Shown here: piece after piece, positions 3,300 through 33,809 of the stretch
How positions within the stretch are numbered: the stretch's first letter is position 1
How the letters are laid out: each line of letters begins with the position of its first letter
From: a bacterium
GTDB lineage: Bacteria; Patescibacteriota; Patescibacteriia; JACQSD01
DNA length: 45,078 nt
NCBI GenBank assembly: GCA_030648795.1
Contig: JAUSHC010000014.1
Coordinates: forward strand, 1-45,078
Direction of reading: 5' to 3'
The notes under the pieces: model-generated
What the model saw: the letters and a program-made list of their open reading frames with translations, nothing else
What the model was told of the DNA's origin: nothing
Database searches by the model: none
Translations under genes and position numbers: made by a program

Positions 3300-3300
3300 A

Positions 3301-3500: not shown

Positions 3501-4034
3501 ATGAAACGACTGCACAGCTTGAAGCCCCATCCGCAATCAAAGGGAGAGTGGTGCGGTCCGGCTTCTTTGAAGACAATCCTCGATCATCTGGGAAGGAGTC
3601 GGGAGGAACAAGAACTTGTACGGTTGTGCGGTACAAGTGATCATGGCACGGAGCACGCGGGACTCATCGTTACCGCGCAGACACTTGGCGCTCATATTTT
3701 TGAAAAGACGGACGGAGCGCTGGAAGAGATAGCATGGTTTCTTGTCACCCCGAAACTTCCCGTGCTTGTAGCATGGTGGTCGGATTATCATCCGCCGGCG
3801 GGACCACACTATTCCGTCATCTGTCGCATGAGTCGAAATTACGTTTTCCTCGCCGACCCGGAGGAGAAAAGGGTGCGGCGAATGCGACATCATTCATTCC
3901 TTACGCGGTGGCACGACTGCGATACGTCAATCGCTCGTACGTATGAGCGTTGGTACATGGTCATCGCGTTTCGCGGGAAGATTAAGTCTCCTTTCGTGGG
4001 GACGCACCATCTTCCGCTGCAGACTTCTGTCTAG
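3501..4034 (+). CDS. Stand-alone papain-like cysteine peptidase, C39-like domain
   Basis: Cys (GEWCGPASLKTIL), His (GPHYSVIC) and Asp (FLADPE) occur in the order and spacing of C39 bacteriocin-processing peptidase domains. ATG 3501 follows a purine-rich GGGAAAGGGGG. The TTG at 3402 in the ORF track would add a non-conserved extension. Confidence 0.6.
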   Translation: MKRLHSLKPHPQSKGEWCGPASLKTILDHLGRSREEQELVRLCGTSDHGTEHAGLIVTAQTLGAHIFEKTDGALEEIAWFLVTPKLPVLVAWWSDYHPPAGPHYSVICRMSRNYVFLADPEEKRVRRMRHHSFLTRWHDCDTSIARTYERWYMVIAFRGKIKSPFVGTHHLPLQTSV

Positions 4035-4044
4035 AGAGTCATAT

Positions 4045-4074
4045 GCCCTTGGGTTTTTATCCTAGGGCTTTTTT
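4045..4074 (+). terminator. Rho-independent terminator after the C39-like gene
   Basis: GCCCTTGGGT/ATCCTAGGGC stem (one mismatch, one G:U, loop TTTT), followed by T6 at 4069-4074. Confidence 0.65.
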
Positions 4075-4109
4075 ATAGTTGGCTTGAAAATTTATGTTAT
4101 ACTGAACTT

Positions 4110-8452: not shown

Positions 8453-8470
8453 AAGTATCCTCCTAAAAAC

Positions 8471-8508
8471 AAAAATCCCTTCGACTATCGTCGGAGGGAT
8501 TTTTGTTG
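8471..8508 (+). terminator. Rho-independent terminator after groEL
   Basis: 15-bp stem AAAAATCCCTTCGAC/GTCGGAGGGATTTTT (one G:U, loop TATC) running into a T-rich tail. Confidence 0.8.
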
Positions 8509-8519: not shown

Positions 8520-8548
8520 TTGACAAAATGCAAAAAGTGTGCTATTAT
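8520..8548 (+). promoter_or_regulatory. Sigma70-like promoter of the giant-ORF operon
   Basis: TTGACA (8520-8525), 17 nt, TATTAT (8543-8548), with TGC immediately upstream (extended -10-like). An AGGAG SD at 8595-8599 lies 7 nt before GTG 8607. Confidence 0.65.
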
Positions 8549-8606
8549 ACTCATATAATCAAGTAAAATATACCTCTTTCCTTCCAGCAAATTTAGGAGT
8601 ACGGTA

Positions 8607-11600
8607 GTGTCGCGTGAAGACATTATTCTTTTTACTATGTACCATCACGTTCGTAAATTGAAAGGCTCTACGGTGGATCGTTTGCATCAGTATTGTTGTG
8701 TGAAATATCCATCGTATGGTGCGTGGCATGAGCATCCGTATCACAGTCACACGCACTGGTTTATCTTTTTCATTTTTTCTATCGGATGGCTGATGGGAAT
8801 ATTTTTTCAGTTACATCTTTTCCCCGTTCGTTTTGCGGGAGCGGCGTCGTATTCATGGAATCAATCAAGTTGGGTTGGTGGAGTGACAACAAATAATCCG
8901 AATCATACATCAAATCAAACGGGTTGGACCCAGTACAGCGCGGTGGATGCGACCATCGCTACGAGTACTACATTGACGCTCGCGCAACAGAGCACGACCT
9001 TCACGGAAAATTTTACCGAAACTGCATATAAAGATTCTTCAAACACAACAACGCAATGGAATACCTATATTGAGTTTATCCGATTGACCGAAACTGATAA
9101 GTGGGCGTCGAAAGCAGTTTTTCCGTCGAGCTTTTCCGGTGGTGTTCTCATCCCTTCCGGTGGGAGCTCCTATGTGTACGGATTAAAGGGTACCGCATTT
9201 TGGCGTTACGACATTAGTGGTGATGTGTGGAACGACCCTCTTGACCCTGCAGACCCCACATCGATTTCGAGCAGTCTTGGTGCATCATCTGCGATTTATG
9301 TTGACCGCAATGCGCCCGCAATTTACGTGCTCGGAGGCTCAGCAAATTTTTATAAGTATACAATTTCCACGGACACTTGGAGTACGCTTGCATCAAATTC
9401 TAATGTTGCTTCCGTTGGCGCGTTAGGGTACCCGGGATCCGGTGATTGTATTTATGCTCTTTCTGGAACTTCTAGCTCTGGTAAACTCGATGCATATTCG
9501 ATAGACAACAATACTTGGAATACGAATTGCGCTGATCCAACAAATCCTCCTGCGGGAATCGGTACCGGCGTTTCTATGACGTGGGCAAACGTTGCCGGTT
9601 TTACCAACTCCCTTTTTGCATTTCGTGGTGGATTCAATTCAGATGATTTCTGGATGTATTCAATAACGAATGACAACTGGACGACACCTGATCCAGTAGA
9701 TCCTCCGAAAAATGTTGCTTCTGGCGGATCGCTTACGTGGGCAAACGTTGCCGGTGTGACGGATTACATTTTCGCAGATCCGGGGGATTCTGACCGCGAT
9801 GTGTGGGCGTACTCACTTTCGAATAACAATTGGACGACAATGTATCCGCAATGGGTGATTGAATCTTCTGCAACAGCGAGTGTTATGAATAATAACGGAT
9901 GGTCTGGTGGAGCAGGGTTCACCTATCCCGGTGCGGGGAACTATCTCTATACTGCGCACGGGGGAAATAGCACTGCATTTCTTCGTTTTGAACTTCCTTT
10001 AAATTATCAGACGCCAAAAGTTGTTCAATCAATAGCGGTTGATTCTACGACCCAAGCGATTGCATCCGCGACGTTGACCGCGACCTCGACAACTCCCGCA
10101 GGGACTGCAATCGCGTATTCGATGAGTCGTAATGGAGGGACGACGTGGGAGACTGTAACGTCTGGTAATGAGCTTACCTTTGCCGATTCCTCGGAGAAGT
10201 CCGATCTCCGATGGAAAGCAAGTCTTTCTACAACCGATGTGACAAAGTCGCCGACAATTACCAATGTTTCGATTACGTACAAATATTACCCCGCATCTAC
10301 AACACTCACGTCTTCTACATTTAATAGTGAGGCATCTACAACACAGGTAACACAAATGGCGTGGAGTGAAACGGTTCCCTCTGGGACGAACGTTCGTTTT
10401 CAGATCCGTACCGCGCCAGATAATGGTAGCGGAGCGCCCGGCACGTGGTCTGATTGGCTTGGCCCTACGAGCACAACAGACTACTATGAGACAACGCCAT
10501 TGGGTGAATCCGTGAATAGCGCGAACTCTTCTGACGCGAATGATCAGTGGATACAGTATAAGGCGTATCTCACTTCTGATGGAATAAGTACGCCAACACT
10601 TTCGGGCGCAACGCTTTCATATAATATCCTTCCTGCTACGCCGTCACTTTCTTCAAGTACGCATCCATCGCAAACAACATTTTATCCAAGCGCAACGCCT
10701 ACCATTACGATCACCGCAAGCACTCCAACGCCTGATCATTATCATTATCTTGTGAGTGAAACGGCGGGTTCCTCGACAAGCATATTTAATAATCATGCGG
10801 GAACGGTAGCGCCGAGCACTTCTTTTCCGATTACGATTGCGAGCGAAGGGACATGGTATGTATACGTAATAGCAAGCGATAGCGGTGGAACCAATTCCGC
10901 AAATCTTGCAACGTATACAATTAAGTATGATCCAAATGCACCTGTTGTGCCGACACTTTCTTTTGGAAGTATTACGACGTCTTCGATTACCGTAAGCGCG
11001 ACGAGCAGTGATAGTGGAGCAGGACTTCATGCGACGCCTTACTATTTTGAACGAGATAGTGGCGCAGCAACATCTGGATGGACTTCTGGGAGTTGGACGG
11101 ATTCCAGTCTTTCACCGAATAAGCAGTACTCTTATCGCGTGAAGGCGCGTGATGCAACTGCAACACCAAACGAATCATTATTTACGGCAGTGTCGCAGAA
11201 GTATACCGCTGCAAATACACCGGGAACTCCGACCATTTCAAGCGCAACGGCGACAACCATAACCCTTACGCTTAATGCAAACAGCAATCCGGATATAACA
11301 CAATTTTCCATTCAGGAATCATCGGGACAGTATGTGCAAGCAGGAAAGACTTTGAATACTACCGAAACATGGCAGACGCTCGCGCAGTGGGGAACGATAA
11401 CAGTGACGAGCCTTTCCGAAGATACACAATATTCTTTCCGCGTGCGCGCACGGAATGGTGATACTACGGTAACGAGTTTTTCTTCTTCCGCGTCAGGGTC
11501 AACCGGCGCAGGAGCTCCGCAAAATTTTCGCGCAACAACAATCCAATCATCGTCAGTCACAATTACTGCAGATGATCCAAGCTATACAGCCACCGCATAT

Positions 11601-13622
11601 TATTTTTCGCGAACAGGAGCGAATTCTGGATGGACGACGAATTACTGGATAGACTCTGGGCTTTCACCTAACGCTTCTTATACGTATAGCGTGAAGACGC
11701 GCAATGCAAGCAACGTTGAATCAACGAGCGCTTCGCTTACCGTGATAACCGCGGCGGAAGTTCCTTCATTATCATCGATTGATACGACCAAAATAAAAGA
11801 TACATCATTGGTAGTAGCGCTTGGATCTTCTTCTAATCCTGCGGGAACGGAATATGCAATTCGTGAAAAAGGCGTAAATACAAGTACCAACGCGTATGTG
11901 CAATCGTCGGGTGGAGCGCTTAGCGCGTTGGAGGTATGGCAGACATATACGAATTGGGGAGGGGCAACAGGCGTGACGGTTACTGGGCTTACGGCAGGCA
12001 CATCCTATACATTTGTCGTAAAGGCGCGTAACAGCGAAGGCACTGTGACGACAGAAAGTACATCGGTATCAGGAACAACACTTGCGATTCCAGGAGCACC
12101 TTCAGTAACGACAAGCGCAACAACGAAAAATCAAATTGTTTTCTCGCTTACATCAACGAACAATTCATTATCTACACAGTATGCTATTCGCGCTGTTACG
12201 GGAGATACGACGTCGTATGTACAAACGGGCGGTACACTTGATATTGATGCGGCATGGCAGACGGCACCGCAGTGGGGAACGGTTACAGTAACCGGGCTTA
12301 CCGCAAATACCGCATATACATTTTCAGTAAAAGGGCGCAGCAGCGCAGGATTTGAAACAACATTCGGAAGCGGAACAATGGAGAGCACGCTTGCTACGGG
12401 GACTCCTCGCGCGCCATCGGTTACCGCGCAATCGACATCATCTGTGCTTGTGACCATTGATAATACAGACATTGATCCGTCTTTTTCATATTCCATTCGT
12501 GAGATAACGGCAACGGGGCAGTATGTACAAACCAATGCGCAATTGGGGGGTGACCCTGCTCGACAAGATTACGCAGGGTGGGGAGGTGCGAGCGGTGTTT
12601 CGGTGCTTGCGCTTCTTCCAAGAACCTCTTACAGTTTTCGTGTTGGAGCATATAATCCTGCGACGGGTTTGACGAGTTTTGGCCCTGTCTCGGCAGCAGT
12701 AACAACGCCTGGTGGCGGTACTGCGGATTATACCGGTCCTACGGTGCCGACAAATATTCATGTTGATACGGTACCGACGGTAGTGCGTAACGGATCCTCC
12801 GTGCTTGGCGGGATACGTGTCACGTGGACTGATCCGACTGATGCAGATTTTTCTGCTGTCTATATTTATCGCGCGCCTACGACGACGGTCGTTAGTACGA
12901 CAAGTCCTATCCGTGTCGAGGAGGGGAGTGGAGTATTTTTTGATCAATTGGGACTTGTGTCTGAAAGATATTACAATTATTTACTTCGCTTTGACGATGA
13001 TAATGGCAACAGATCATATAGCGATACATTTACCGCACAAGCGCCATCATCCACAATTGAAGTAGAGGTGCCGCTTACACCATTACCGCTGGTCCCTGTT
13101 CCTCAAGCACCGTTAATAGCACCACCACCTACGACAGCATTGAGTATTCCTATTCCTACGGGTCCGCGCGCGCTTCCGTCAGTAAATATCAGAGATCTTA
13201 TTCGCGTGCAGCATCCGGTTACTACGCAGAGCATTATTGATTCATTTGTGTCGAGCCTGTCGCAACAGAAGTGGATACGCACGCAACTTGTAATCACCGA
13301 TACGAGTCTACGTATTGCTGGTGTGTTTGGGGGCCTCTATGATGTTCTACCAAAGGGGTCTACGGCAGGTGATAATCTTGATCCTGCAGTAGGAATTACC
13401 ATACGTTATAAGCTTGGCGATGCAGGGGGATTCCTTAAAGGGGGGAAGTTTCTACGACTTGGATACTTCAATGCTAATGCGGTAAAGAAAGAATGGGTAA
13501 TCATTGCCGACGCGGAACAAAATATTTCGGATAAAGTGTATGGTTCATGGACCGCAAAAGTTAGTAGAGCAGGAACGTATGGCATGCTTATTCTAGAGAA
13601 AAATAATAATGCAGTGCAGTAA
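8607..13622 (+). CDS. Giant surface protein 1 (1671 aa): N-terminal membrane anchor or signal, Kelch-like propeller, beta-sandwich modules, seven FN3-like repeats
   Basis: Uninterrupted 5-kb ORF with a GTG start and good SD. It has one hydrophobic segment (WFIFFIFSIGWLMGIFFQLHLF) followed by AGAAS. Domain details are in the sub-features below. Confidence 0.9.
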   Translation: MSREDIILFTMYHHVRKLKGSTVDRLHQYCCVKYPSYGAWHEHPYHSHTHWFIFFIFSIGWLMGIFFQLHLFPVRFAGAASYSWNQSSWVGGVTTNNPNHTSNQTGWTQYSAVDATIATSTTLTLAQQSTTFTENFTETAYKDSSNTTTQWNTYIEFIRLTETDKWASKAVFPSSFSGGVLIPSGGSSYVYGLKGTAFWRYDISGDVWNDPLDPADPTSISSSLGASSAIYVDRNAPAIYVLGGSANFYKYTISTDTWSTLASNSNVASVGALGYPGSGDCIYALSGTSSSGKLDAYSIDNNTWNTNCADPTNPPAGIGTGVSMTWANVAGFTNSLFAFRGGFNSDDFWMYSITNDNWTTPDPVDPPKNVASGGSLTWANVAGVTDYIFADPGDSDRDVWAYSLSNNNWTTMYPQWVIESSATASVMNNNGWSGGAGFTYPGAGNYLYTAHGGNSTAFLRFELPLNYQTPKVVQSIAVDSTTQAIASATLTATSTTPAGTAIAYSMSRNGGTTWETVTSGNELTFADSSEKSDLRWKASLSTTDVTKSPTITNVSITYKYYPASTTLTSSTFNSEASTTQVTQMAWSETVPSGTNVRFQIRTAPDNGSGAPGTWSDWLGPTSTTDYYETTPLGESVNSANSSDANDQWIQYKAYLTSDGISTPTLSGATLSYNILPATPSLSSSTHPSQTTFYPSATPTITITASTPTPDHYHYLVSETAGSSTSIFNNHAGTVAPSTSFPITIASEGTWYVYVIASDSGGTNSANLATYTIKYDPNAPVVPTLSFGSITTSSITVSATSSDSGAGLHATPYYFERDSGAATSGWTSGSWTDSSLSPNKQYSYRVKARDATATPNESLFTAVSQKYTAANTPGTPTISSATATTITLTLNANSNPDITQFSIQESSGQYVQAGKTLNTTETWQTLAQWGTITVTSLSEDTQYSFRVRARNGDTTVTSFSSSASGSTGAGAPQNFRATTIQSSSVTITADDPSYTATAYYFSRTGANSGWTTNYWIDSGLSPNASYTYSVKTRNASNVESTSASLTVITAAEVPSLSSIDTTKIKDTSLVVALGSSSNPAGTEYAIREKGVNTSTNAYVQSSGGALSALEVWQTYTNWGGATGVTVTGLTAGTSYTFVVKARNSEGTVTTESTSVSGTTLAIPGAPSVTTSATTKNQIVFSLTSTNNSLSTQYAIRAVTGDTTSYVQTGGTLDIDAAWQTAPQWGTVTVTGLTANTAYTFSVKGRSSAGFETTFGSGTMESTLATGTPRAPSVTAQSTSSVLVTIDNTDIDPSFSYSIREITATGQYVQTNAQLGGDPARQDYAGWGGASGVSVLALLPRTSYSFRVGAYNPATGLTSFGPVSAAVTTPGGGTADYTGPTVPTNIHVDTVPTVVRNGSSVLGGIRVTWTDPTDADFSAVYIYRAPTTTVVSTTSPIRVEEGSGVFFDQLGLVSERYYNYLLRFDDDNGNRSYSDTFTAQAPSSTIEVEVPLTPLPLVPVPQAPLIAPPPTTALSIPIPTGPRALPSVNIRDLIRVQHPVTTQSIIDSFVSSLSQQKWIRTQLVITDTSLRIAGVFGGLYDVLPKGSTAGDNLDPAVGITIRYKLGDAGGFLKGGKFLRLGYFNANAVKKEWVIIADAEQNISDKVYGSWTAKVSRAGTYGMLILEKNNNAVQ
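9100..10000 (+). other. Kelch-like six-bladed beta-propeller region of giant protein 1
   Basis: About 50-aa blades with a recurring aromatic-x-Y-x(4-6)-W motif: FWRYDISGDVW, FYKYTISTDTW, LDAYSIDNNTW, FWMYSITNDNW, VWAYSLSNNNW and a final AFLRF. Confidence 0.6.
10930..13040 (+). repeat. Array of seven FN3-like domains in giant protein 1 (two alternating subtypes)
   Basis: Subtype A: ...YYFxRxxxxxSGWTxxxWxDSxLSPNxxYxYxVKxR. Subtype B: ...SNPxxTxYxIxExxxxxYVQxxGxLxxxxxWQTxxxWGxxTVTGLxxxTxYxFxVKAR. The observed order is A-B-A-B-B-B plus a divergent terminal copy. Confidence 0.7.
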
Positions 13623-25600: not shown

Positions 25601-25752
25601 CGCATAACGCGATTGAAAGTTCCGATGGTTTCACGATCACCAACATAAAAGAGGGGAGCTATGCCATTGGCATGATCACAGAACGTCGACTGCATATTCT
25701 TCCCACTATTCCTTTAAGTGGTGATTTATTGCAGCCACTTCCGCAACTATGA
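13609..25752 (+). CDS. Giant surface protein 2 (4047 aa): mosaic of propellers, LamG/ConA-like lectin folds, a DUF2341-like module and Ig/FN3-like repeat arrays
   Basis: Uninterrupted 12.1-kb ORF. ATG 13609 overlaps the upstream stop by 14 nt; an alternative ATG at 13627 gives a 4-nt gap. N-terminal signal-like RRSLFIAFLSAAFLFIGYHVDA. Confidence 0.9.
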   Translation: MQCSNSMQCFGKQRYARRSLFIAFLSAAFLFIGYHVDALRWVVDTLPYPAGSVTGLVAAFDPSGNPTAAQTSLGRAVYLSSTGAGRNWAAEEVMAISEWVSGRPGFAFNGATPSIIAGGLFMTRDGGATNGMFRCSDADWSCETLGYGVSNYVGAQSDLVYANGVPIIAYDSGNSAMHIASRDGNGKGNVMADKDWNEKWIYTDGIKRQYPALALYNGKPIVFYYLTVDNGATGELMMAYCSSNCGTYGTQTGASWTEVRLDNASANIGQRIDAEVYGNSIFLTYEDRSSGGIRYATCSASCLSAGSWQNKITLTTLGRSSYPALTMDANGHPRIAYYDTQTLQPKIASCDTSCDTIPSNWARETVDTTSNRGGNTDLLLDANGLKHVFYGEGLLYHAGESVNVAPTATVSEGAIVQGGGASGLVTFQFQVNDANGDKTKARVEYSIDGTNWYRTFLVPASTRVSTGIATTDNAEFSIGAVDAIDTDSGTVTVTTVWDTKNAANGSGAITVETGNMRLRVQATDGELTSVLAQSDAFSVDNAVPSSFTSFRATGATDSTVTLTWGGVTDTNFTHYTIWYGTDAAAVRGKRASAWDERNDTALASSTAGGTVITGLSSGTVYYFFIEASDRFGNATQVAEEIPRATARQRRPSTPAPIPTPTPIPVPGTTPPPTQYPGDANSCPGFSYSRLDSSGRRYCQLNSEEKCNYNYPGYLDQTSYNKANCPAPTLTPVLGTTPIPVPSTTPPPIHTWTFLDGSKTSFILARTDPEYTNYITSIENLCRTIKQSEFVWSTGSGDASSTSFGIPDCTKAVQLNPTPPPPILVPDTPLPPAPILESQPQTEPQPYVGGGAFVDETKDTFAGAYENMRWNAESNFLELDTTKKQGTYTSQVHNVGKVSDWKTLAWTPNMLSEKALPNDGAQEAGYPEGNADMTGNVLLLHMDEAKWDGTADEVRDASGNGNNGKRINGANTNTEGKVGRRGEFNGTNDYVDLSKEWGIGLFGSGSASTPDAFTVEAWLRPGTRALQDKKAEDQVAVYNGWGGEFNLGYISKDEDSGKGRFHLSVNITGEGWKGVTSDVAYDPAVWYHVIGVYSRTERNAMLFVDGVPAGTASFTTTGPLLHPGTYHPATIGAYTAYTKVRSAFWKGAIDEVAVYRRALSEGEVRSRYTRSASTIRLQVRSCDDSVCAGGEKAGGEKFVGPDGTANTYYEETRKSATGLPEFSLSNVPSNQYFQYRIILATDKADFGLNVRRVAVAYDATEGGEGEAPLPSRTTVVWKETSPADWTEGTKEGASVTGTGDAALLQLPLQEVTAETITLPTTDTITAARFTAQDNGWAVGNNGTILHWNGNAWSTVSSPTLESLWGLTLLDKDNGWAVGNNGTILHWNGSAWSASISGTTSALSGVAFTAENNGWAVGDEGTILHWNGSAWSVATSGTTTVLYGVAFTSANDGWAVGNSGTILHWDGNAWSAETSPTSFALFAIGQGQGGALFAVGDGGVIVKREQTGGWVAVPSMTPTPLLAFASRPGGMSAVVGDYGEALESTDGSTWASSLFDIQEALFTVAFAGTDQWMMGTNGAAFRVRRGAGQKEGTFTSAVRDAGVIPLWQRIQWEGQAPAGTTVRLQFATSNSMEGPWQFVGPDGTARSFYTDANKALWAGHGSQRFARYRVLFTGDGESIPTVDAVSVFYTYDPDALPLTPTPLAPKDAVLLNSNPVLSWSGIPPATEYIVEANWVNPRVSADPVRTTETQISFTDFVFHDVPVFVQESDSIAYSWRVRAEADAGVKSDWSSPRTFTIDTKVPEAPAPVAPEEGATFSTAPTFQWSAVTDANAEAISYTFTLSKAETGATPLLQFPLTGTTFTPTFPLSDGTYLWGVSAKDKAGNTSAAFKATFTVKAPVPAPTAAPFGLTTEQTATELTLRWQDVPLGGDTYTIEVAHACVGAEGCEEFINLIPSLTQQDKIIIPVVLDLSNEEVGDYFVRVLRVNEGGRGPAVQQKFTVRRLIAPTVSSLVQTHVLWRNDDGDEQSATKMVDEDTAITDVRAGIINRLRAQVANEGETVSGSLHYALQYAIRSDTSCDAVPTNAWATIPTQAAENQWGLADSTHFIDGALATNLPPVMSDPEGAAFINGALHDTKSRSAALALNAHSYTEFEYAFSTGADVASGATYCFRLVDAQKAGDVEKLQLTSGQGRALSTAVIDAAGEFLYFGTFEIPAKIIKIRLSDFSYIAAKQLTGRDGELNNAVIDTSSGFAYFTTQTTPQKLIKIRLSDLAQVGSLTLTSEEIFGPLLIDNQNKTLYAGILSNASTAPARVEKIRLTDFTIEDTFTFNDGEIRLQNTAAIDAQDGLAYFIIKKKFGFDELVKVRLSDFSRIGSLSPQPEDVVLETPGPLAGKEHTLQAFIIDAAHNVGYLTTTSTRNDTKRIVAIRLSDFTRVTATDLTLTNDDVNDVLAIDRVNGFVYIGTGSSGILQVRLSDMQQIDALNFGFLLGNPIALDNDHGAVYVGTLAGAVNRFYSADATRTLSEYRHYAEVTVAKKVLLPEQPVLSPLPEGPTKSLPAISWAPVANAARYEVTVTKLSDDSVRFTETITQPDDTTAPMTATLLNDKVLSDGEYLVKVLAVNTEGKGNDSSVASFVFDGTAPDAPELNTLSMKPTSTIPSITWLPSEGASSYTVVVTALNDPTIRYSETLTQPQSEDPMTRLSSTLLSDKQIVDGTYTVAVTVTDEAGNTKTSEEQFVLDREKPVAPTELVPTGTLEVSPTTLSWSAVSDITDYRIVFAKKEGDIIAYNTPLFDDTVQGVTFELLSSPSDGTYGWRMYALDAAGNESDPIEAVFTVKTPVPPPTSVPVDPKIQQDENTVTMQWGDTKDLGNDTYSVLVSHDGDFSQVIDTLSKTGLKLKDLPLTFDWSNEDDGTFYARFYRENEGGRGPITTSAFVVARAGVEELLVLDGWGYEQTIKFEGPTPLNEYQAQITLDATFDYTNAAPDGADLRFVDADGNVASYWIEQWNPEGASTIWVSVPLKGTRSLDLYYGNSEAEATSNVNDTFEFFDDFNVPDAGGFGFNSGTRHRDEPKYYPRWTVQKGTFDIKDGTLRNWFGDEGGGDTITIDSIVSRPGYAVRSRVLEDHQRRYPTMFLGWQGDFFINDKGQERPDNYYFIQLNAADQKIYLRKFINGVVATLAEKSIPALELSKWYAWELRWESVNKLSAELWGNDGEILAVLSGTVDEGWITGQYGFRGIRGVSNTIFDDVLVRKYSAGTADDLTPLPPSAPRLLEPANKDIVDALPKLTWEANSAAVNYTIDLRDKNGVIVSSIPGKLTPFTTTKAFLEIPASALKKDGVYTWRVRVKTSTGLSDWSETPRFTLDTEKPEKPQFISAQTEPTQLPVTLEWSEARDAISYVITIMNKDDPTITLIEQLAAASELNYTISRDVLPGFIDGEYIATIVAEDVAGNQSAEDTMTITIDTTVPEKPVFDNLPTTPVRIVPNLEWNRVEGASAYDITVTKTDDLSFVKIEETITESSGKNIRAKLLDDKTLTDGTYNILLVTRDAAGNTVETAASFTIVTPPNIPELSLPDNEKYIHTLPTLSWNAATGATSYVLTLKGAVEREESITATSIDLSSLSPALPDGEYMWSVTAKTVTAASEPSVPRVFTLDRQSPQSPINIAPENGSLYQIAPRLAWENASQEDDVDVSSFTITVTTDADINFDQPISSLDSEKKELFFPSLGEGKYRWHVVAHDKAGNASDPSSAATFTIAYPTDAPLPLSPQQGETVNSTVVVFQWTDVSREVRKAAYNLTLIKKNAEGGNSVITTLEGVQGTEANYTFAEDGEYEWTVVGITDGVIGTPSAIASFTIDQSTEASVDVRRLIIYEHAPPSFLPVYQPGCGTLGDKACSEDKKLIVEQDPSVILPVAKSWKVETITQEELRGLPRVRGTVLTDSSGHVKTTQRIIGFIGRIYDVSGILTNAKVLTISYDPFVKSVLLKPGYKLAPLYFDHKTNQWSVAHNAIESSDGFTITNIKEGSYAIGMITERRLHILPTIPLSGDLLQPLPQL
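16440..17110 (+). other. LamG / concanavalin-A-like lectin domain in giant protein 2
   Basis: DASGNGNNGxxxNGANT...GxxGEFNGTNDYVDL...FTVEAWLRPG...VWYHVIGVY...LFVDGV...GAIDEVAVYRRALSEGEV is the classic Laminin_G_3-type motif order. Confidence 0.7.
17560..18360 (+). repeat. Seven-blade Ycf48/BNR-like propeller in giant protein 2
   Basis: About 38-aa blades. GWAVGNNGTILHWNGNAWS occurs four times nearly identically at peptide level, with many synonymous DNA differences, then LFAVGDGGVIV, SAVVGDYGEAL and QWMMGTNGAAF. The family was assigned by motif resemblance only. Confidence 0.55.
20170..21160 (+). repeat. Seven about 50-aa repeats (propeller-like; family uncertain) in giant protein 2
   Basis: Consensus a-(V/I)-ID-x(3)-g-x-a-Y-f-x(8-14)-(L/I)-(I/V)-K-(I/V)-R-L-S-D-(F/L), seen seven times (KIRLSDFSY, KIRLSDLAQ, KIRLTDFTI, KVRLSDFSR, AIRLSDFTR, QVRLSDMQQ and a final degenerate copy). 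Confidence 0.55.
22420..23370 (+). other. DUF2341-like module followed by a ConA/LamG-like (DUF1080-like) beta-sandwich in giant protein 2
   Basis: GWGYEQTIKF...QAQITLDATFDYTNAAPDGADLRFVDADGNVASYWIEQWNPEGASTIWVSVP...LDLYYGN matches the DUF2341 pattern as I remember it. It is followed by FEFFDDFN...WTVQKGTFDIKDGTL...YYFIQLN...IYLRKF...GFRG...FDDVLVRKY. Confidence 0.55.
23390..25170 (+). repeat. Largest of three Ig/FN3-like repeat arrays in giant protein 2 (the others are about 18690-19610 and 21215-22420)
   Basis: About 95-aa units with the pattern P-x-(L/F)-x-W-x(5-8)-A-x-x-Y-x(20-35)-(D/E)-G-x-Y-x-W-x-V-x-A-x-D-x-A-G-N-x-S. Six copies are in this array. Confidence 0.65.
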
Positions 25753-28700
25753 TGAAACACCCTTTCATTTTTTCACGAGCGCTCTCTTCCTTTGTAGTTT
25801 CTACGATCGTTATTGTTTCTATTATTGCGGCGAGCATGATGGCACCGATGATAGGACGAGCAGCGACGGGTTCTTGGGGGGTGGTTTCCTCACCTACCAC
25901 ACAAACATTAACGGACGTTACATTTTTTAATTCTGACATTGGATGGGCTGTGGGAGAATCAGGAACGATTCTTTCTTGGGGCGCAGCGACAAAAACATGG
26001 GAAAAAAGCGGATCTTCTTTTACTCCGGCAACGTTGTGGGGTGTTGACGCATTTGGACCGTCTGATGCATGGGCAGTGGGTGATAGCGGATCGCTTCTGC
26101 ATTTTAATGGTACTGCATGGGTAACAGAGAGTTCATTTGCTTCTACACATCTTCTTGATGTTGATGCGGTTGACGCTGGTACGCTTTGGGTTGTGGGAGA
26201 TGGAGGGACGATTTTTGAAGGAGTAAAAACAGGAAGCAGTTTTGTTTGGACACAATGGTCAGACGCGGGATTTGTTTCGAAAGTTTTTTATGGTGTTTCT
26301 TTTCGTGATGCATCGGACGGATGGATTGTGGGGTCGGATGGAATGATTCTCCATTGGGATGGCAATGTATTTGCGCAAATTGAAGCACAGGTGACGGATG
26401 ATCTTTTTGACGTTATCGCCACGGGAAATAATACGGCGATTGTTGTCGGTGAGAATGGAGTTATTCTTCGCGTAAGTACCGTTGGCGCAGAGCGCATAGT
26501 AAGTCCTACTGGCGATGCTTCTTTATTAAGTGTTGCGATGAATGCGCAGGGGCGTGGATGGATTGGTGGAGAATATGGCACACTGCTTGCGAGCGCAGAT
26601 GCGGGTGAACATTGGCAGACGGCAACGAGTTCGGTTTCTTCCGCACTAACGCGAGTTTTTTTTCCTTCAGAAGATCAAGGATGGATCGTGGGTACAGGGG
26701 GGACGATTGTGCACTACATGCCTTTACCGGCAGTGCCGGTACTTGTCAATCCGATGGATGCAGTAGTGACCAATGATGCGCCGCTTTTATTTGATTGGGG
26801 AGCCGCATTATATGCTGATACGTATACGCTGCGCTACGCAACGTCTGTAAATTTTACGAGCGGTGTTGTTACCGTGCCAAATCTTACTGCGTCTTCATAT
26901 ACACCTACAGTATCGGATGGTACATATTATTGGAAAGTGTGGGGCGTGAATACGGCGGGGGCGGGGGATATATCGCTCGTTCGTTCAGTGCGTATTGATC
27001 GTACGCCGCCCGCAATACCACAACCTGAAGAGCCGGGTGCGAATGCAACAGTAATAATGGCAACACCAACATTGCAATGGGGGGTTGCGAATGATGCGAC
27101 GCGACATGAACTTCGCCTTGATGATGCATCGCCGATAGCTGTAACCACGAATACGTATACACCAGCGGTCGCATTGGGAGAAGGAACACATACGTGGCAG
27201 GTGCGATCGTTTGATGCAGTAGGGAATTCTTCCGAATGGAGTGGTGTGCAATCATTTACTGTGCCGTCACAGACTATTGTTCCGCCACCTGATACCACAC
27301 CACCATCCGTTCCGACACTTCTCTCTCCTTCCGTATCCGCAACAGTTACTGTGCGAACTCCGGAGTTTCGTTGGAGTGGTGATACGGATGTCGCTGAATA
27401 CGATGTGCAGGTTTTTGCAAGCGGAACAACGCCACCCTCCGTTCCTCTTGTTGTTGTAGCATCTCCATGGACGTCGACAGATTCGCTTACAAATGGAGTT
27501 TATAGTTGGCGTCTGCGTGCACGTGATCATGCAGGCAATACGTCAGCGTGGAGTACAGGAACTTTTACCGTTACAGTCGCATCGACAATTACTATTGAAC
27601 CTCCGCCTTCGGAACAACCTATACCTCCAATTGTGCAGCCTGTTCCGGCGCCGCTTGTATTTTCTTTAACGGGTCCGGGATCGATTATTACGGAAACAAA
27701 ACCGGTATTCACGTGGTCGGCATCCGTGAATGCAACCACCTATACGCTGGAGATCGTTGGTGATGGTACAGCATTTATAAAAACGATAGCGAATATTACT
27801 ACAACAAGCTATATTCCCGCTGAAGCATTGTCACAAGGAAAATATTTTTGGAAAGTAACTGCATCAAATAGTGAAGGAGTATCGGTTATTGCGGGCTCCC
27901 AACCATTGATTATTGATGCGACTCCACCGCCTGCCCCCACGCTTTCAGAGCCAAGTCCCGACGCACAAACTACGCTACCTGTAGCTCTTGTTTGGGCTCC
28001 TGTGTCTGATAACCTCACCTCGGTAACATATACCGTGCAAGTTGATGACGGGAATTTCAGCAGTCCGACATTCGTTACCGCGGGGACGAGCGATGTGAAT
28101 GCCGCCTCGACAACAACACTGGAAATCAATGCGCAGAATTTCGTGGATACCCAATACCTCATTACCAACGGACTTACGTCTGGCATCACGTACCGTTGGC
28201 GTGTGTGGGCGAAAGATGCGGCAGGAAACATGAGCACGGCACCGAGCGCTGTCCGGTCATTTATTATTCCCGTTCCGGCAGTAGCACCATCGGCATTTAC
28301 CCTTGCCGAATCTTCTGAAGTGACTATTGACGCAACACCGACATTTCAATGGACGAAGTCAGACGGTGCAACAGCGTATACGCTTTTCATCCAAGGCAAT
28401 GGCGCCAATAATACAGTGACACGCGCGTATCCCGGGAGTAACGAAATTCCTTTCACGAAGCTTTCCTATGCCATAACTGATCCATTGCCTCTTGGTACGT
28501 ATACCTGGTATGTCCGCGCGACAAATAGCGCTGGGACCTATTCCGCACCATCACGGTTAATAATGATAGCGACTTCCGTAATAGAAAAAAAGCAGTCTGA
28601 AATTTTACCCCCTGAACCGTTACCCCCTCTCCCACCAACAAAGGAGGCGATAGATACCGCAATCCGTAGTGGATCGATAGAAGAAACACCGACGATCACT

Positions 28701-30638
28701 GTTACGTTAACATCATCCGCAACGCTTGCCACTAATCGCCCGCTTCTTTCAGGGCTTCTTTCTATTGGGAGTACGGTTGCGCAAGTATTGATTGACGAAC
28801 AACCCGTTGCACCTGTATCTATCGGAGCAAGTGGGGCATTCGTATTTGCGTCCCCCATTCGTCTTCCGGACGGAGAACATACGTTGCGTTTCATGGTGGA
28901 TAATATTCCGACAAATGCAGTCACCTTTTTTATTAGCACAAGAGAGCCAGTATCTGCAACCGTGAACGACATCGTCGTTGCGCGACAACAACCGGGGGCT
29001 GTACCGGGAACGATGGATCTCTTGATTGTTGTCCAAGCATCGGTTGACGCGACAACGCAATCGATCGCGCTTATTGATCCGACGGCAAAGACAACGATAG
29101 CCGAAGAAACAACAACAGCAAAACAGCCAACGCTTTCGGTCTCTGTCACAAGAACAGCCGAGCAACTTGGTACACACACACTGCTTTTAGTCACCCGCGA
29201 TCAGTTCGGGGAATCAACAATACAACAGATTACGTATGCGGTAACAAATGCGCCAATAAGTTATGCGTGTAGTGATGGCGTGGATAATGACGCGGACGGA
29301 AAGATTGATTATAGAGCGGATCCAGGTTGTTCTGGTTTTACAGATACACAAGAAGATGATTCGTTGCTTGTAACATTATCACAGCAAGCGACGGTTTCTG
29401 CAGTAACGAATGCGTTGAATGATACAGCAATGACGACTATCGATGCTGCACAACGTTTTACGGAACAAACAGTAAAGCAGACTGCCGCCTTTGCCGAGGT
29501 TACGGATCGTATTGTGCAAACAACACAACCGGTAACGATACGAACGTTGGCAGCGGTTGCTCCTGCGGCGATTGTGGTGAATCCGATAACAGCATCAAGT
29601 TTGCCTGCGCTTCCGGGGATGGTTACCAATGCGTTCTCATGGCTTTTCTCCGCTTTAGGAATTCGCAAGAAGCGAAAGAATCCATGGGGGATGGTGTATG
29701 ATGCCATTACGAAAGAGCCGATTGGTTTGGCAATTTTGCGACTTTTTGACGCGGGAACCCCGATAACAAAGCAGGGCGTTGTTACGGGACAGGCTTCACA
29801 ATTATTGGCAACGCAGGTCACTGATAAAGAAGGGCGGTTTGAATTTCTTGTGAAGCCGGGAAGCTACAGAATTGAGGCTCAAAAAACACCGTTTCTATTC
29901 CCGTCAAAGATTATCGAAGGGAAGGATGATGGAGAATTGTTTAATGTCTATCATGGAGAAGTGATTTCTGTCACTACTGAAGGACAAGCAATGCATGTAA
30001 ATATTCCTATTGATCAAGAAAATATTACGTTGCCGCGCATTGCTTCACTTCGCAATACGTTCCAACGTATTCGTCGAATTGCAAGCAAAGCATCACTGCC
30101 GCTTTTGGTCATAGGGACTGGAATAAGTATTGTCATGTACGCATTTTCGCAGACGAAGTATAATCTTTTAGCGCTTCTCGTCTACGTAGGATTTGCAGCA
30201 TACCAGACGATTCTCTCACCGAAGAAAGTGAAATCATGGGGTACGATTTTTGATGCAGTAACACTTACGCCGGTATCACTCGCGATGGTGAGCATTATTG
30301 ATCCGCAGTATCAGCGCGTTATCAAAACCCGTCTTTCAGATTATCAGGGAAGATTTACTTTTTTGCCTGATCCGGGGAATTATCAATTGAAAGTAACGAA
30401 AGCGAATTATCAGTTCCCGAGTAAGACCGAAAAAGCGGTTAAAAAATATCACCACTTGTATCACGGAGAATCTTTAACGGTCGCTAAAAAGAAGGCAATC
30501 ATTGCAGTAGATATTCCGCTTGACCCTCTTATGTCGACTGCGTCTACGCCGTCTGTTTCATCCGTGCCACCATCAACAATTCCGCCGACGGCTATCGCTA
30601 CGCCTCCCGCATCTCCTCCTACGTCACCAACATCGTGA
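25749..30638 (+). CDS. Giant surface protein 3 (1629 aa): N-terminal anchor or signal, Ycf48/BNR-like propeller, Ig-like array, Cys/Asp Ca-binding-like motif, C-terminal membrane module with two CarboxypepD_reg-like domains
   Basis: Uninterrupted 4.9-kb ORF. Its ATG overlaps the upstream TGA as ATGA (25749-25752). N-terminal hydrophobic segment SFVVSTIVIVSIIAASMMAPMIGRAAT. Confidence 0.9.
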   Translation: MMKHPFIFSRALSSFVVSTIVIVSIIAASMMAPMIGRAATGSWGVVSSPTTQTLTDVTFFNSDIGWAVGESGTILSWGAATKTWEKSGSSFTPATLWGVDAFGPSDAWAVGDSGSLLHFNGTAWVTESSFASTHLLDVDAVDAGTLWVVGDGGTIFEGVKTGSSFVWTQWSDAGFVSKVFYGVSFRDASDGWIVGSDGMILHWDGNVFAQIEAQVTDDLFDVIATGNNTAIVVGENGVILRVSTVGAERIVSPTGDASLLSVAMNAQGRGWIGGEYGTLLASADAGEHWQTATSSVSSALTRVFFPSEDQGWIVGTGGTIVHYMPLPAVPVLVNPMDAVVTNDAPLLFDWGAALYADTYTLRYATSVNFTSGVVTVPNLTASSYTPTVSDGTYYWKVWGVNTAGAGDISLVRSVRIDRTPPAIPQPEEPGANATVIMATPTLQWGVANDATRHELRLDDASPIAVTTNTYTPAVALGEGTHTWQVRSFDAVGNSSEWSGVQSFTVPSQTIVPPPDTTPPSVPTLLSPSVSATVTVRTPEFRWSGDTDVAEYDVQVFASGTTPPSVPLVVVASPWTSTDSLTNGVYSWRLRARDHAGNTSAWSTGTFTVTVASTITIEPPPSEQPIPPIVQPVPAPLVFSLTGPGSIITETKPVFTWSASVNATTYTLEIVGDGTAFIKTIANITTTSYIPAEALSQGKYFWKVTASNSEGVSVIAGSQPLIIDATPPPAPTLSEPSPDAQTTLPVALVWAPVSDNLTSVTYTVQVDDGNFSSPTFVTAGTSDVNAASTTTLEINAQNFVDTQYLITNGLTSGITYRWRVWAKDAAGNMSTAPSAVRSFIIPVPAVAPSAFTLAESSEVTIDATPTFQWTKSDGATAYTLFIQGNGANNTVTRAYPGSNEIPFTKLSYAITDPLPLGTYTWYVRATNSAGTYSAPSRLIMIATSVIEKKQSEILPPEPLPPLPPTKEAIDTAIRSGSIEETPTITVTLTSSATLATNRPLLSGLLSIGSTVAQVLIDEQPVAPVSIGASGAFVFASPIRLPDGEHTLRFMVDNIPTNAVTFFISTREPVSATVNDIVVARQQPGAVPGTMDLLIVVQASVDATTQSIALIDPTAKTTIAEETTTAKQPTLSVSVTRTAEQLGTHTLLLVTRDQFGESTIQQITYAVTNAPISYACSDGVDNDADGKIDYRADPGCSGFTDTQEDDSLLVTLSQQATVSAVTNALNDTAMTTIDAAQRFTEQTVKQTAAFAEVTDRIVQTTQPVTIRTLAAVAPAAIVVNPITASSLPALPGMVTNAFSWLFSALGIRKKRKNPWGMVYDAITKEPIGLAILRLFDAGTPITKQGVVTGQASQLLATQVTDKEGRFEFLVKPGSYRIEAQKTPFLFPSKIIEGKDDGELFNVYHGEVISVTTEGQAMHVNIPIDQENITLPRIASLRNTFQRIRRIASKASLPLLVIGTGISIVMYAFSQTKYNLLALLVYVGFAAYQTILSPKKVKSWGTIFDAVTLTPVSLAMVSIIDPQYQRVIKTRLSDYQGRFTFLPDPGNYQLKVTKANYQFPSKTEKAVKKYHHLYHGESLTVAKKKAIIAVDIPLDPLMSTASTPSVSSVPPSTIPPTAIATPPASPPTSPTS
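25870..26725 (+). repeat. Seven-blade Ycf48/BNR-like propeller in giant protein 3
   Basis: Blades: GWAVGESGTILSW, AWAVGDSGSLLHFNGTAW, LWVVGDGGTIF, GWIVGSDGMILHWDGNVF, AIVVGENGVILRV, GWIGGEYGTLLASADAGEHW, GWIVGTGGTIVHY. This is the same blade type as 17560-18360. Confidence 0.55.
26725..28560 (+). repeat. Ig/FN3-like repeat array in giant protein 3
   Basis: It uses the same P-x-(L/F)-x-W ... G-x-Y-x-W-x-V-x-A-x-D-x-A-G-N unit as the protein 2 arrays, in about 8-9 copies separated by Pro-rich linkers. Confidence 0.6.
29261..29345 (+). other. Cys/Asp-rich CxDGxDNDxDGxxD motif (thrombospondin-type-3/MopE-like Ca-binding-like)
   Basis: The peptide is YACSDGVDNDADGKIDYRADPGCSGF. Confidence 0.5.
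29530..30530 (+). other. C-terminal membrane module of giant protein 3: a TM segment, a CarboxypepD_reg-like domain, two TM segments, then a second CarboxypepD_reg-like domain
   Basis: Hydrophobic segments are LAAVAPAAIVVNPI...AFSWLFSALGI, LPLLVIGTGISIVMYAF and LLALLVYVGFAAYQTIL. The beta-sandwich motifs are GMVYDAITKEPIGLAILRLFD...TDKEGRFEFLVKPGSYRIEA and GTIFDAVTLTPVSLAMVSIID...DYQGRFTFLPDPGNYQLKV. The protein ends in a Pro/Thr/Ser tail. Confidence 0.55.
29756..29788. repeat. Palindromic element, family D, copy inside giant protein 3
   Basis: AACCCCGATAACAAAGCAGGGCGTTGTTACGGG is the exact reverse complement of 31381-31413 (33/33 nt). It has internal imperfect arms CCCGATAACAA/TTGTTACGGG. 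Confidence 0.9.
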
Positions 30639-30650: not shown

Positions 30651-31286
30651 ATGCTCATTTCTCTTCTTTTTGATAACCCGCTTCTCTTCGTTTCGGCAAT
30701 TCTTGCCGCGATCATTGCATTTACATTTCATGAATTTGCACATGCAGCAGCAGCAACGCTTTTAGGCGATGACACTGCAAAGCAAGAACGGCGACTGTCG
30801 TTAAATCCTTTCGCACATCTCGATGTTGTTGGATTCTCGCTTCTTCTCGTGAGCGGTTTTGGATGGGCAAAGCCAGTACCCTATAATCCGTATGGGCTCA
30901 AAACGCGCTTTGGAGGGAATCTTCTTATTCCACTCGCAGGACCGGCGATGAATTTTGTTCAAAGTATTATTGCGGCAAGCGCTTTGCGTCTATTTGCCGC
31001 CGCATCGTATTCTCCCGACCATTTTTTTGTGCAGTTTTTTGGTTTATTCCTTTTGATTAATCTTCTTCTTGGATTTTTTAATCTTATTCCTATTCCGCCA
31101 TTGGATGGATCGCGTATAATGCTTTCTCTTTTTCCGGATCGTTATGAAGAATCGAAAGTACATTTTGAACGATCGGGTCCGTTTCTTCTTATTCTTATTA
31201 TTATTCTTGATGCGTCGTCTGGATTTAATTTTTTCGCGCATTTTTTAAACGTGCTTTCTCATTTCGTTTCAGCGTTCATGTCTTAG
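30651..31286 (+). CDS. Site-2 protease family zinc metalloprotease (peptidase M50)
   Basis: HEFAH zinc motif in the first TM helix, a NLIPIPPLDGSRI (LDG) motif, and a polytopic hydrophobic profile. It starts 12 nt after the giant protein 3 stop. Confidence 0.85.
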   Translation: MLISLLFDNPLLFVSAILAAIIAFTFHEFAHAAAATLLGDDTAKQERRLSLNPFAHLDVVGFSLLLVSGFGWAKPVPYNPYGLKTRFGGNLLIPLAGPAMNFVQSIIAASALRLFAAASYSPDHFFVQFFGLFLLINLLLGFFNLIPIPPLDGSRIMLSLFPDRYEESKVHFERSGPFLLILIIILDASSGFNFFAHFLNVLSHFVSAFMS

Positions 31287-33793: not shown

Positions 33794-33809
33794 AGCGTGT
33801 ATTGGGCGT

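Follow-up and report, generated by a model that had tools for sequence, protein, structure and literature searches.

A Candidatus Uhrbacteria locus with three tightly packed genes for giant, probably cell-surface proteins and an adjoining M50 protease gene

Introduction

Among the bacteria that make up the candidate phyla radiation (CPR, Patescibacteria), Vampirococcus lugosii (Absconditabacteria) encodes giant membrane proteins of 1,392-4,163 amino acids (aa) with WD40, PKD, fibronectin and integrin domains, which have been proposed as the makeup of its fibrous surface and as host-binding molecules (Moreira et al. 2021; PMC8080830). Epibiotic growth of Saccharibacteria requires adhesins (PMC10633639), giant genes have been surveyed elsewhere (bioRxiv 10.1101/2023.11.21.568195), and the giant immunoglobulin (Ig)-repeat type is represented by a Mobiluncus adhesin of 7,651 aa (PMC10619420). 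Here we describe three giant genes, called P1, P2 and P3, on contig JAUSHC010000014.1 of assembly GCA_030648795.1; "the window" below is the whole 45,078-nucleotide (nt) stretch of this contig that was analyzed. The three head-to-tail open reading frames (ORFs) lie on the + strand at 8607-30638 and are followed by a small gene of the M50 protease family. Our preferred reading, to which we give a probability of roughly 60%, is that this is a lineage-specific and fast-evolving P1-P2-P3-M50 operon that would encode giant Sec-exported cell-surface proteins devoted to binding and not to catalysis.

The Vampirococcus proteins are the nearest parallel. In both cases a CPR genome of reduced metabolism encodes several predicted membrane proteins in the size range of roughly 1,400-4,200 aa (P1, P2 and P3 all exceed 1,400 aa) that carry adhesion or interaction domains. 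The resemblance is one of kind only. The organisms belong to different groups (Absconditabacteria versus Uhrbacteria), the Vampirococcus paper describes neither an operon nor terminal modules common to the proteins nor a protease linked to them, and a fibrous surface was seen there, whereas the present proteins are known from their genes alone.

Other described systems share single features with the locus. Ebh and SasG are giant Ig-repeat adhesins of Staphylococcus, the former with a C-terminal membrane anchor. They and the Mobiluncus adhesin resemble P1-P3 in that tandem Ig-like rods would carry binding modules off a single-membrane cell, but here there is no LPXTG sortase signal, the anchor consists of three transmembrane (TM) segments and two CarboxypepD_reg domains, three genes are involved, and the heads are of propeller and LamG type. 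LapA is a type 1-secreted RTX protein that sits in an outer-membrane pore and is cut by the periplasmic cysteine protease LapG. This pairing of a giant repeat adhesin gene with a nearby gene for a retention-controlling protease offers a possible analogy for P3 and the M50 gene, although the window has no RTX repeats, type 1 secretion system (T1SS) or outer membrane, and its protease is an intramembrane M50 protein whose putative substrate would be P3. In the Mycoplasma pneumoniae P1 operon (P1, P40/P90), membrane-anchored adhesin partners assemble into an attachment complex; this too is a minimal host-dependent bacterium without an outer membrane and with its adhesin partners in one small operon, but there is no sequence or domain similarity, and the Mycoplasma proteins are much smaller and have no Ig/FN3 arrays. 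Finally, P2 and P3 each match the entire seven-blade fold of Ycf48/HCF136 (PF14870; PDB 2xbg, 5oj5). That likeness is of fold only, since the module here lies, as in many homologues, within giant exported proteins of a non-photosynthetic CPR bacterium.

Results

Layout of the giant-gene unit

The features that define the unit are as follows.

8468..8507, + strand, intrinsic terminator of groEL (18-pair stem, then a T-run), the upstream boundary of the unit
8520..8548, + strand, sigma-70-like promoter TTGACA-N17-TATTAT with a TG extension (11/12 matches, the best in the region)
8595-8599, + strand, Shine-Dalgarno-type AGGAG preceding the GTG start of P1
8607..13622, + strand, P1, 1671 aa from a GTG start (1661 aa from an alternative ATG at 8637)
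13609..25752, + strand, P2, 4047 aa (4041 aa from an alternative ATG at 13627)
25749..30638, + strand, P3, 1629 aa, in ATGA overlap with the P2 stop codon
30651..31286, + strand, small M50 (site-2 protease family) gene, 211 aa, beginning 12 nt after P3

The window GroEL has its top named matches, at 95, 82 and 80% identity, in Candidatus Uhrbacteria, followed by matches labeled only as Patescibacteria group. This places the source organism in Candidatus Uhrbacteria, as an ultra-small and probably host-dependent CPR bacterium, and the episymbiont that had been offered as an example in the initial annotation (made from the sequence of the window before any database search) was an apt choice.

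That annotation described three coupled ORFs of 1671, 4047 and 1629 aa filling about 49% of the window, and its coordinates are correct: the three genes total 7,347 codons, or 22,032 nt (48.9%). It also reported overlaps of 14 nt between P1 and P2 and of 4 nt (ATGA) between P2 and P3. Both can be read in the sequence from the listed ORF starts, but the public gene calls begin P1 at ATG 8637 (1661 aa; entry P0245, which is P1 from residue 11) and P2 at ATG 13627 (4041 aa; entry P0244, P2 from residue 7), and with these starts the 14-nt overlap becomes a 4-nt gap. The P1 orthologue in a close relative (GCA_040960175.1, here L001) begins at the equivalent of 8637. The start codons of P1 and P2 are, as judged from these gene calls, ambiguous, and the packing would be tight with either choice.

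Immediately upstream, groEL stops at 8452. Its terminator is kept in L001 with compensatory changes, and the -35 element and spacer of the promoter are identical there; the promoter and the Shine-Dalgarno sequence that had been predicted ahead of the first ORF are both present downstream of that terminator. No terminator-like match occurs at any giant-gene junction, in agreement with the earlier remark that no hairpin plus T-run separates the ORFs, and such matches are no more numerous in the block than in shuffled sequence (23 versus 19.1 ± 3.9, and 10 versus 6.9 ± 2.9). The transcription unit is likely to be P1-P2-P3-M50, with the M50 gene as its probable last member, and we infer a single mRNA from the conserved promoter. 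Rfam finds no RNA in the window, and there are likewise no tRNAs.

The lengths of these ORFs raise the matter of assembly errors. Direct DNA repeats between 8400 and 30800 stay at or below 77% identity over 93 nt, and the one array in tandem comes from a propeller in P2, whose DNA has a diverged blade repeat with a periodicity of 117 nt. The reading frames are unbroken for 5, 12 and 5 kb. Independent assemblies are colinear with about 1,250-1,300 aa of P1 (proteins P0246 and P0248, 44-46% identity), with P2 1270-2010 and P3 582-1606 (P0001, encoded in L001) and with P2 3672-4047 and P3 (contig L002). The checks for chimeras by repeats and by independent assemblies thus found no near-identical repeats and large parts in colinear order.

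Domain content of P1, P2 and P3

Each of the three proteins begins with an N-terminal hydrophobic segment of export type, a single one per protein as had been noted at the outset, and the rest is a mosaic of interaction domains that Pfam searches on tiles and PDB searches both bear out. An iterated hidden Markov model (HMM) counts 21 Big_13-like Ig units and 6 FN3 units across P1-P3, a total of 27, with Pro/Thr linkers, where roughly 30 had been estimated. No catalytic family is found in P1-P3 by whole-protein and tiled Pfam scans, which agrees with the earlier failure to recognize a catalytic motif, and NCBIfam gives none of the three proteins a name. The N-terminal segments, the paired cysteines of P2 and the three-TM anchor of P3 (both below) support the view that all three are exported or membrane proteins, as first proposed. 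The account of how they are held at the membrane was incomplete in the initial annotation, which missed the C-terminal transmembrane module of P3.

Several known classes of surface protein were considered and rejected because their defining motifs or genes were not found. A C-terminal LPXTG is absent from P1-P3, and the sole LP.T[GAS] match is internal (P1 1337, within an FN3 repeat), against the sortase class. The GG.G.D motif of RTX proteins is likewise absent from the three proteins and the neighboring genes are of housekeeping type, against RTX/T1SS export; SLH (S-layer homology, PF00395) is unmatched in the same Pfam scans; and P1-P3 have neither a lipobox nor type 9 secretion system (T9SS) sorting signals. 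With respect to a diversity-generating retroelement (DGR), there is no reverse transcriptase among the annotated window genes and no long direct repeat pair in 8400-30800.

P1 consists of the following parts.

8637..9095, + strand, conserved N-terminal module (aa 11-163), 70% identical to P0121, the P1 orthologue of L001
9099..10016, + strand, Kelch-like propeller head (aa ~165-470, about 6 blades), recognized by Kelch profiles and a blade motif
10935..12677, + strand, stalk of six FN3 repeats (aa 777-1357), found by Pfam fn3 and the iterated HMM
13293..13619, + strand, P1 copy of CTD-A (aa 1563-1671), a C-terminal domain shared by homology with P2 and with proteins of relatives

In the N-terminal module, a Cys/His-rich tail (RLHQYCC..AWHEHPYHSHTHW) is combined with a hydrophobic segment (aa 49-74) that has a hydrophobic stretch of 24 residues, an AGA↓AS site and a stalk; the A-x-A↓A site is conserved, and the module as a whole is kept in P0121 and P0248, while the adjacent propeller region does not align with P0121. 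Two roles are conceivable for the module, that of a retained type-II anchor and that of an extended signal peptide. A weaker form of the motif (Y..WH..PY...THW, then a TM segment) occurs in an ORF at 5410-5976 of metagenomic locus L022, 4 kb from a gene of the P3 anchor family described below. Judged by these sequences, the P1 motif may have wider use in the CPR as a signal for export or anchoring. The Kelch-like propeller of the initial annotation receives partial support: Kelch_6 scores 31.4 bits on a 450-aa tile against a cut-off of 25.3 but only 18.6 on the whole protein. Kelch_3 and Kelch_1 also match the tile, and about six blade motifs are visible. Unassigned beta-rich modules lie between this head and the FN3 stalk.

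P2 is the largest and most varied of the three.

13663..13725, + strand, signal-type hydrophobic segment (aa 19-39), KQRYARR followed by an h-region and VDA↓L, a presumed cleavage site
13726..14808, + strand, N-terminal repeat domain (aa 40-400) with one C-x3-6-C loop per repeat and the motif NG.P.I.YY
16627..17097, + strand, LamG/ConA-like domain (aa 1007-1163), Laminin_G_3 at 84.1 bits against a cut-off of 27.6
17545..18348, + strand, Ycf48/BNR-type seven-blade propeller (aa 1313-1580), PSII_BNR at 46.4 bits against a cut-off of 27
20182..21162, + strand, seven-unit repeat A.D..G..Y...+I+.RLSDF (aa 2192-2518), six clear units and one degenerate
22555..22758, + strand, DUF2341 module (aa 2983-3050), 71.7 bits against a cut-off of 23.4
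23407..25155, + strand, six Big_13-type Ig repeats (aa 3267-3849) that form the distal stalk, from the iterated HMM and Big_13, Ig_J and Ig_Rha78A_N
25486..25698, + strand, CTD-A copy (aa ~3960-4030), by homology to the P1 C-terminus

The N-terminal repeat domain has no Pfam match, and a PDB profile search with the seven-unit repeat gives no credible match (the top ones are propellers, with E = 0.1-0.9). Both regions may nevertheless have a propeller fold, to judge from their repeat patterns; an AlphaFold2 (AF2) model of the seven-unit repeat from its single sequence is unusable (predicted local distance difference test score, pLDDT, 35). An FN3-like unit and, between Pro/Thr linkers, two small Cys domains lie ahead of the Laminin_G_3 domain. 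The latter accounts for one of the LamG/ConA-like folds reported earlier, but a second, said to follow DUF2341, was not confirmed, whereas the RLSDF repeat of seven units and the DUF2341-like module both stand. Eight Ig repeats in addition to those of the distal stalk lie at aa 544-640, 1698-1998 and 2541-2934 for a P2 total of 14 units, with three after the Ycf48-type propeller, four before DUF2341 and six after it; the region between the three Ig repeats and the seven-unit repeat is beta-rich and unassigned. P2 has 24 cysteines, two of them ahead of the signal-type segment, and nearly all are in close pairs (11 pairs), a pattern that would fit an extracytoplasmic protein.

P3 has an export signal of its own (signal-type segment at aa 5-39) and the following domains.

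25869..26735, + strand, Ycf48/BNR-type seven-blade propeller (aa 41-329), PSII_BNR at 84.1 bits against a cut-off of 27
26736..28562, + strand, stalk of six Big_13-type Ig repeats (aa 330-938), from the iterated HMM; missing from the L002 orthologue
28656..29528, + strand, conserved membrane-proximal ectodomain (aa 970-1260) with a beta-sandwich, an acidic double-disulfide motif (CSDGVDNDADGKIDYRADPGC) and a helical linker
29616..30548, + strand, C-terminal anchor module (aa 1290-1600), defined by hydrophobic segments and PF13620

The two Ycf48/BNR propellers of the initial annotation are thus complete seven-blade propellers. That of P2 aligns to residues 27-316 of the 326-residue PDB Ycf48 chains, that of P3 matches them with E = 5e-12 across the entire propeller, and the two matches together span residues 24-325. 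The Ycf48 equivalog model NF010237, whose cut-off is 326 bits, yields only 35 and 85, and the window has no photosynthesis context, so the propellers of P2 and P3 share the fold of Ycf48 and not its role in photosystem II.

A seventh Big_13-like unit of P3 sits inside the membrane-proximal block, which also has a sub-threshold match to NF033662. P3 970-1613 is 60% identical to L002, and the membrane-proximal part is also inside a 40% high-scoring segment pair with P0001. The anchor module is still better conserved (73-83% identity in L001 and L002) and has the order TM1, RKKRK, CarboxypepD_reg 1, RIRRIASK, TM2, QTKYN loop, TM3, KKVK, CarboxypepD_reg 2, with CarboxypepD_reg (PF13620) matching in two stretches at 47.4 bits against a cut-off of 32.3. 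Across about 70 members of the anchor family, the mean number of Lys/Arg residues is 2.0-3.6 in the flanks of the beta-sandwich domains versus 0.2 in the loop between helices; by the positive-inside rule this would place the P3 ectodomain outside the cell and both CarboxypepD_reg domains in the cytoplasm. An AF2 model of the anchor from a 3-sequence alignment has a mean pLDDT of 41 and is unusable. The possibility that P2 and P3 are a single gene split by a frameshift was considered and ruled out, as P2 ends in a full CTD-A and P3 has its own signal; the same holds in L002.

CTD-A, a shared C-terminal domain

The P1 copy of CTD-A is about 110 aa long, and the domain is common to the C-termini of P1, P2, P0121, P0246, P0248 and the ORF upstream of the P3-like gene in L002, always at the extreme C-terminus. 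In a HMMER search of 1.84 billion representative proteins, a profile built from the P1 and P2 copies had nine matches, of which five are credible: P1 and P2 of the window, P0246, P0247 and P0248. P0121 and the L002 fragment come from other comparisons. By these searches CTD-A appears to be limited to this narrow lineage. It has no credible match in Pfam or PDB; the sole PDB match with E under 0.001, to a designed Kelch-like protein (E = 1e-4), covers a 15-residue stretch only and was taken as an artefact. Wherever the DNA is visible, the gene 3' of one for a CTD-A protein encodes either another CTD-A protein or an anchor-type protein, and this gene-order pattern suggests that CTD-A may dock P1 and P2 on P3 or on the cell wall.

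Conserved ends and exchanged heads in relatives

Comparison with related genomes shows that the anchoring ends of these proteins are conserved while the heads, the repeat numbers and the number of genes change. L001 is close to the window (identities of 94% for GroEL, 86% for HD, 82% for Elp3 and 81% for GatB) and has the same frame of Wzy_C-groES-groEL-[giant genes]-M50-elp3-methyltransferase-miaA-yqeY-gatB-tmk, but its giant genes number only two, which encode P0121 (1686 aa) and P0001 (2242 aa). P0121 aligns with P1 only at the N-terminal module (70%) and CTD-A (32%). P0001 has a mosaic build, with a beta-helix N-terminus, a propeller and Ig block that is 39% identical to P2 1270-2010, a further Ig block and an anchor that is 65-73% identical to that of P3. 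No strain-level hypervariability was seen in P0001: its C-terminal part, up to the last 1,396 aa, is identical on contigs from four further sequencing runs.

The heads of the P1 orthologues are Kelch-like, LVIVD or Lactonase-like on a shared stalk with 44-46% identity. P0246 has an LVIVD head on the P1-like stalk, and P0248, from locus L087, has a Lactonase-like propeller head, with a P0001-like gene coming 5 nt after it. L002 has the closest anchor (83%), with a P2-like C-terminus, then a 1,067-aa P3-like protein without the six-repeat Ig stalk, and then an M50 gene. This 4.9-kb contig (CAYHPG010000066.1) was the sole one from a scan of genome contigs to carry the P3 anchor. It is filed under an uncultured Gammaproteobacteria metagenome-assembled genome, probably by misbinning, as its content matches the Uhrbacteria locus.

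The homologues are therefore co-located in L001, L002 and L087, and the order P1-P2-P3-M50 is kept in part: P2-like end, P3-like and M50 in L002; P1-like, P2-P3 mosaic and M50 in L001; P1-like and mosaic in L087. The order is not general in Uhrbacteria, as L001 has two giant genes and L083 (GroEL 80%) has none at this site, where groEL is followed by pyruvate kinase (11729-13090) and yqeY-gatB-tmk. In L084 (GroEL 76%) the region after groEL (11823-21130) holds genes for an AAA ATPase, a small FN3 protein, ParE-type and nucleotidyltransferase toxin-antitoxin components and a LAGLIDADG endonuclease. The absence of the giant block from L083 and L084 and its presence in L001 indicate that it is specific to one sublineage and occupies a variable spot in a conserved backbone. 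From the gene content seen there, the site after groEL in Uhrbacteria may be an insertion hot spot.

The P3 anchor family and the M50 gene

A pattern scan for the P3 anchor finds 79 metagenomic loci with 27-42% identity, which form 54 clusters at 60% identity, so that the family is present in at least 54 metagenomic lineages. Complete ORFs run from about 400 to 3,490 aa and ectodomains from about 100 to >3,000 aa. The module is constant and the ORF length variable, and the core of the family is thus the membrane and cytoplasmic part, with a variable ectodomain.

The M50 protein has a PF02163 match of 45.5 bits (cut-off 27.2) and the HEFAH (HExxH) and NLIPIPPLDG metal-binding motifs, and the gene is in the matching position in L001 and L002. 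The M50 proteins of the window and of L001 (16726-17361) share only 56% identity, against 76-94% for most neighboring proteins and 59-70% for Tmk, the methyltransferase, dihydrofolate reductase and Wzy_C; M50 thus evolves faster than most of its neighbors. Directly beside an anchor gene and on the same strand, an M50 gene is found in five of the 54 clusters, downstream in the group of the window and in L034 and upstream in L057/60/65, L059 and L076. The anchors so paired are mutually 27-49% identical. Chance adjacency would be well under 1% per lineage if 1-2 M50 genes are assumed among the ~1,000 genes of an assumed CPR genome. The link of M50 and anchor is thus recurrent, yet it occurs in a minority of lineages.

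Other genes accompany the anchor elsewhere. Two families of unannotated exported proteins without a Pfam match are encoded just upstream of anchor-family genes, famA in 16 clusters (about 317 aa, bearing a signal as well as a C-terminal TM segment; for example L007 6942-7895) and famB in 10 (about 236 aa, Ser/Thr-rich; L015 6691-7401), and neither is in the window. In two lineages the anchor gene is followed directly by genes for a 286-aa histidine kinase without a sensor or TM segment and a response regulator (L044 10898-12270, of a group with L034/L046/L051/L064/L066, and L068), which hints that some members of the family may feed a two-component system. At L003 8176-12030, the gene for a 2,571-aa anchor protein (P0009) has behind it, in place of M50 and overlapping by 4 nt, one for a 1,284-aa AAA_5 (MoxR/dynein-like) ATPase.

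Neighboring genes

The rest of the window carries uvrA, C39 peptidase, Wzy_C, groEL, elp3, methyltransferase, miaA, yqeY and gatB, together with phosphoglucomutase, tmk, HD hydrolase, folA, thyA and dcd. Upstream of groES/groEL, the interval 2725-6360 holds a 162-aa unannotated ORF, the C39 peptidase gene (3402-4034, stand-alone, with no adjoining ABC transporter), a 322-aa unannotated ORF and Wzy_C (O-antigen-ligase-like). The order Wzy_C-groES-groEL is kept in four Uhrbacteria relatives (L001, L083, L084 and L086). On the other side, the radical-SAM gene at 31276-33066 (- strand) is Elp3 (TIGR01211, 546 bits) and overlaps the 3' end of the M50 gene convergently by 11 nt. The listed miaA ORF (33720-34757, + strand) overlaps the methyltransferase gene. 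Its L001 orthologue aligns from residue 31, so that the true miaA start is probably about 90 nt downstream. A 414-aa ORF at 36784-38028 (- strand), with no Pfam match, is antisense to phosphoglucomutase (36823-38235, + strand) and is most likely a shadow ORF.

Discussion

If the locus is the surface-protein operon that we favor, a single transcript from the conserved promoter would be followed by Sec export of P1-P3. P3 would be the integral-membrane base, with its ectodomain outward and its two transthyretin-like domains in the cytoplasm, and what keeps P1 and P2 on the cell would be either an N-terminal segment left uncleaved or a CTD-A docked on P3 or the wall. The Ig/FN3 stalks would hold propeller and lectin heads tens of nm from the single-membrane cell, where such binding arms could recognize a partner surface, for example a host cell or a glycan. 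Head swapping would then reflect changing partners or evasion, and the P3 anchor may be a processing substrate of the adjoining M50 intramembrane protease.

Several points weigh against this interpretation. Co-transcription is deduced from gene spacing alone, and expression, localization and binding from sequence only; Uhrbacteria has no cultured member, so that the host is assumed. Signal-peptide cleavage and topology were judged by hand with rules of thumb, and for CarboxypepD_reg domains a place in the cytoplasm would be out of the ordinary. Docking of CTD-A on P3 is a suggestion from gene order, and both AF2 models (pLDDT 41 and 35) are unusable. M50 adjoins only about 10% of the anchor lineages, in which famA and famB are commoner neighbors. 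Finally, no full-length homologue of P2 was found, and its 12-kb continuity is that of this assembly together with segments of P0001 and L002.

The initial annotation proposed a multi-protein surface fibre or adhesin for binding glycans or another cell, a hypothesis that is partly supported; that the three proteins join in one fibre is conjectural. It did not know the gene order as a described system. We have likewise found no description of the three-gene form, of a three-TM/CarboxypepD_reg anchor family with occasional M50, of CTD-A, of the Cys/His module or of the head swapping, but giant membrane proteins with adhesion domains are already known as a kind in the CPR (PMC8080830).

The alternative that survives best is that P1, P2 and P3 are unrelated adhesins that merely share an operon, each separately anchored, with CTD-A as a structural cap. 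An export signal is present in every one of the three, two genes suffice in relatives, and any interaction among P1, P2 and P3 is conjectural. The confinement of CTD-A to the lineage, the rule that the next visible gene encodes a CTD-A or anchor-type protein, and the tight packing kept in relatives all fit this idea poorly, and we give it about one chance in four.

Somewhat less probable is a coat or scaffold of the envelope, S-layer-like or wall-spanning, that would protect or shape the cell or capture polysaccharide or particles in place of recognizing a partner. Ig, FN3 and propeller domains are equally typical of coat proteins, LamG and DUF2341 would fit carbohydrate binding, the operon lies in a housekeeping frame beside groESL and the envelope gene Wzy_C, and P0001 is identical across several samples. 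On the other hand, P1-P3 have no SLH or other wall-binding domains, the locus is missing at this site in another Uhrbacteria genome (L083), and the swapping of heads among close relatives fits recognition better than a coat.

It is unlikely that P3 and its family are transmembrane contact-sensing receptors, in which a ligand bound by the ectodomain of a P3-family protein would signal through the three-helix module to the cytoplasmic domains and M50 would carry out regulated intramembrane proteolysis. A family core made of the TM and cytoplasm-predicted part under ectodomains of such different lengths is what a receptor might look like; M50 adjacency recurs in both gene orders with the HExxH and LDG motifs intact, and a sensor-less kinase with its regulator follows the anchor gene in two lineages. 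Against these stand the minority of lineages with an adjacent M50, the failure to recognize a DNA-binding, anti-sigma or other output domain, a predicted topology, an unusable anchor model and the conjectural nature of any cleavage. A fuller scheme, as speculative as the receptor, would combine several of these elements in a modular CPR contact organelle: P3 would be the receptor platform, with its cytoplasmic transthyretin-like domains and M50 turning contact into an intracellular signal or a controlled release of the ectodomain, P1 and P2 would be exchangeable arms plugged in by CTD-A, and P1 would be routed by its Cys/His-rich N-terminal module. That the long ORFs, P2 above all, are chimeras of collapsed or joined repeats is very improbable, for although relatives' contigs often break in or beside the giant genes and P2 was not recovered elsewhere in full, the lack of near-identical repeats, the unbroken frames with clean domain boundaries and the colinear independent assemblies all speak for the sequence as it stands.

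The preferred reading of a surface-protein operon for binding bears on a group, the CPR or Patescibacteria, that makes up an uncultured quarter of bacterial diversity. To our knowledge, its means of partner recognition are largely unknown beyond type IV pili and a few Saccharibacteria adhesins. The locus supplies testable parts in the form of the P3 anchor family, a candidate docking domain, an N-terminal module and exchanged heads, and the propeller heads exchanged between close relatives are natural candidates for specificity determinants. If the model of a base with arms or the link with M50 is true, these parts would give a general handle on surface display in the CPR; otherwise, the locus is a well-documented case of rapid surface-protein turnover within a fixed housekeeping frame.

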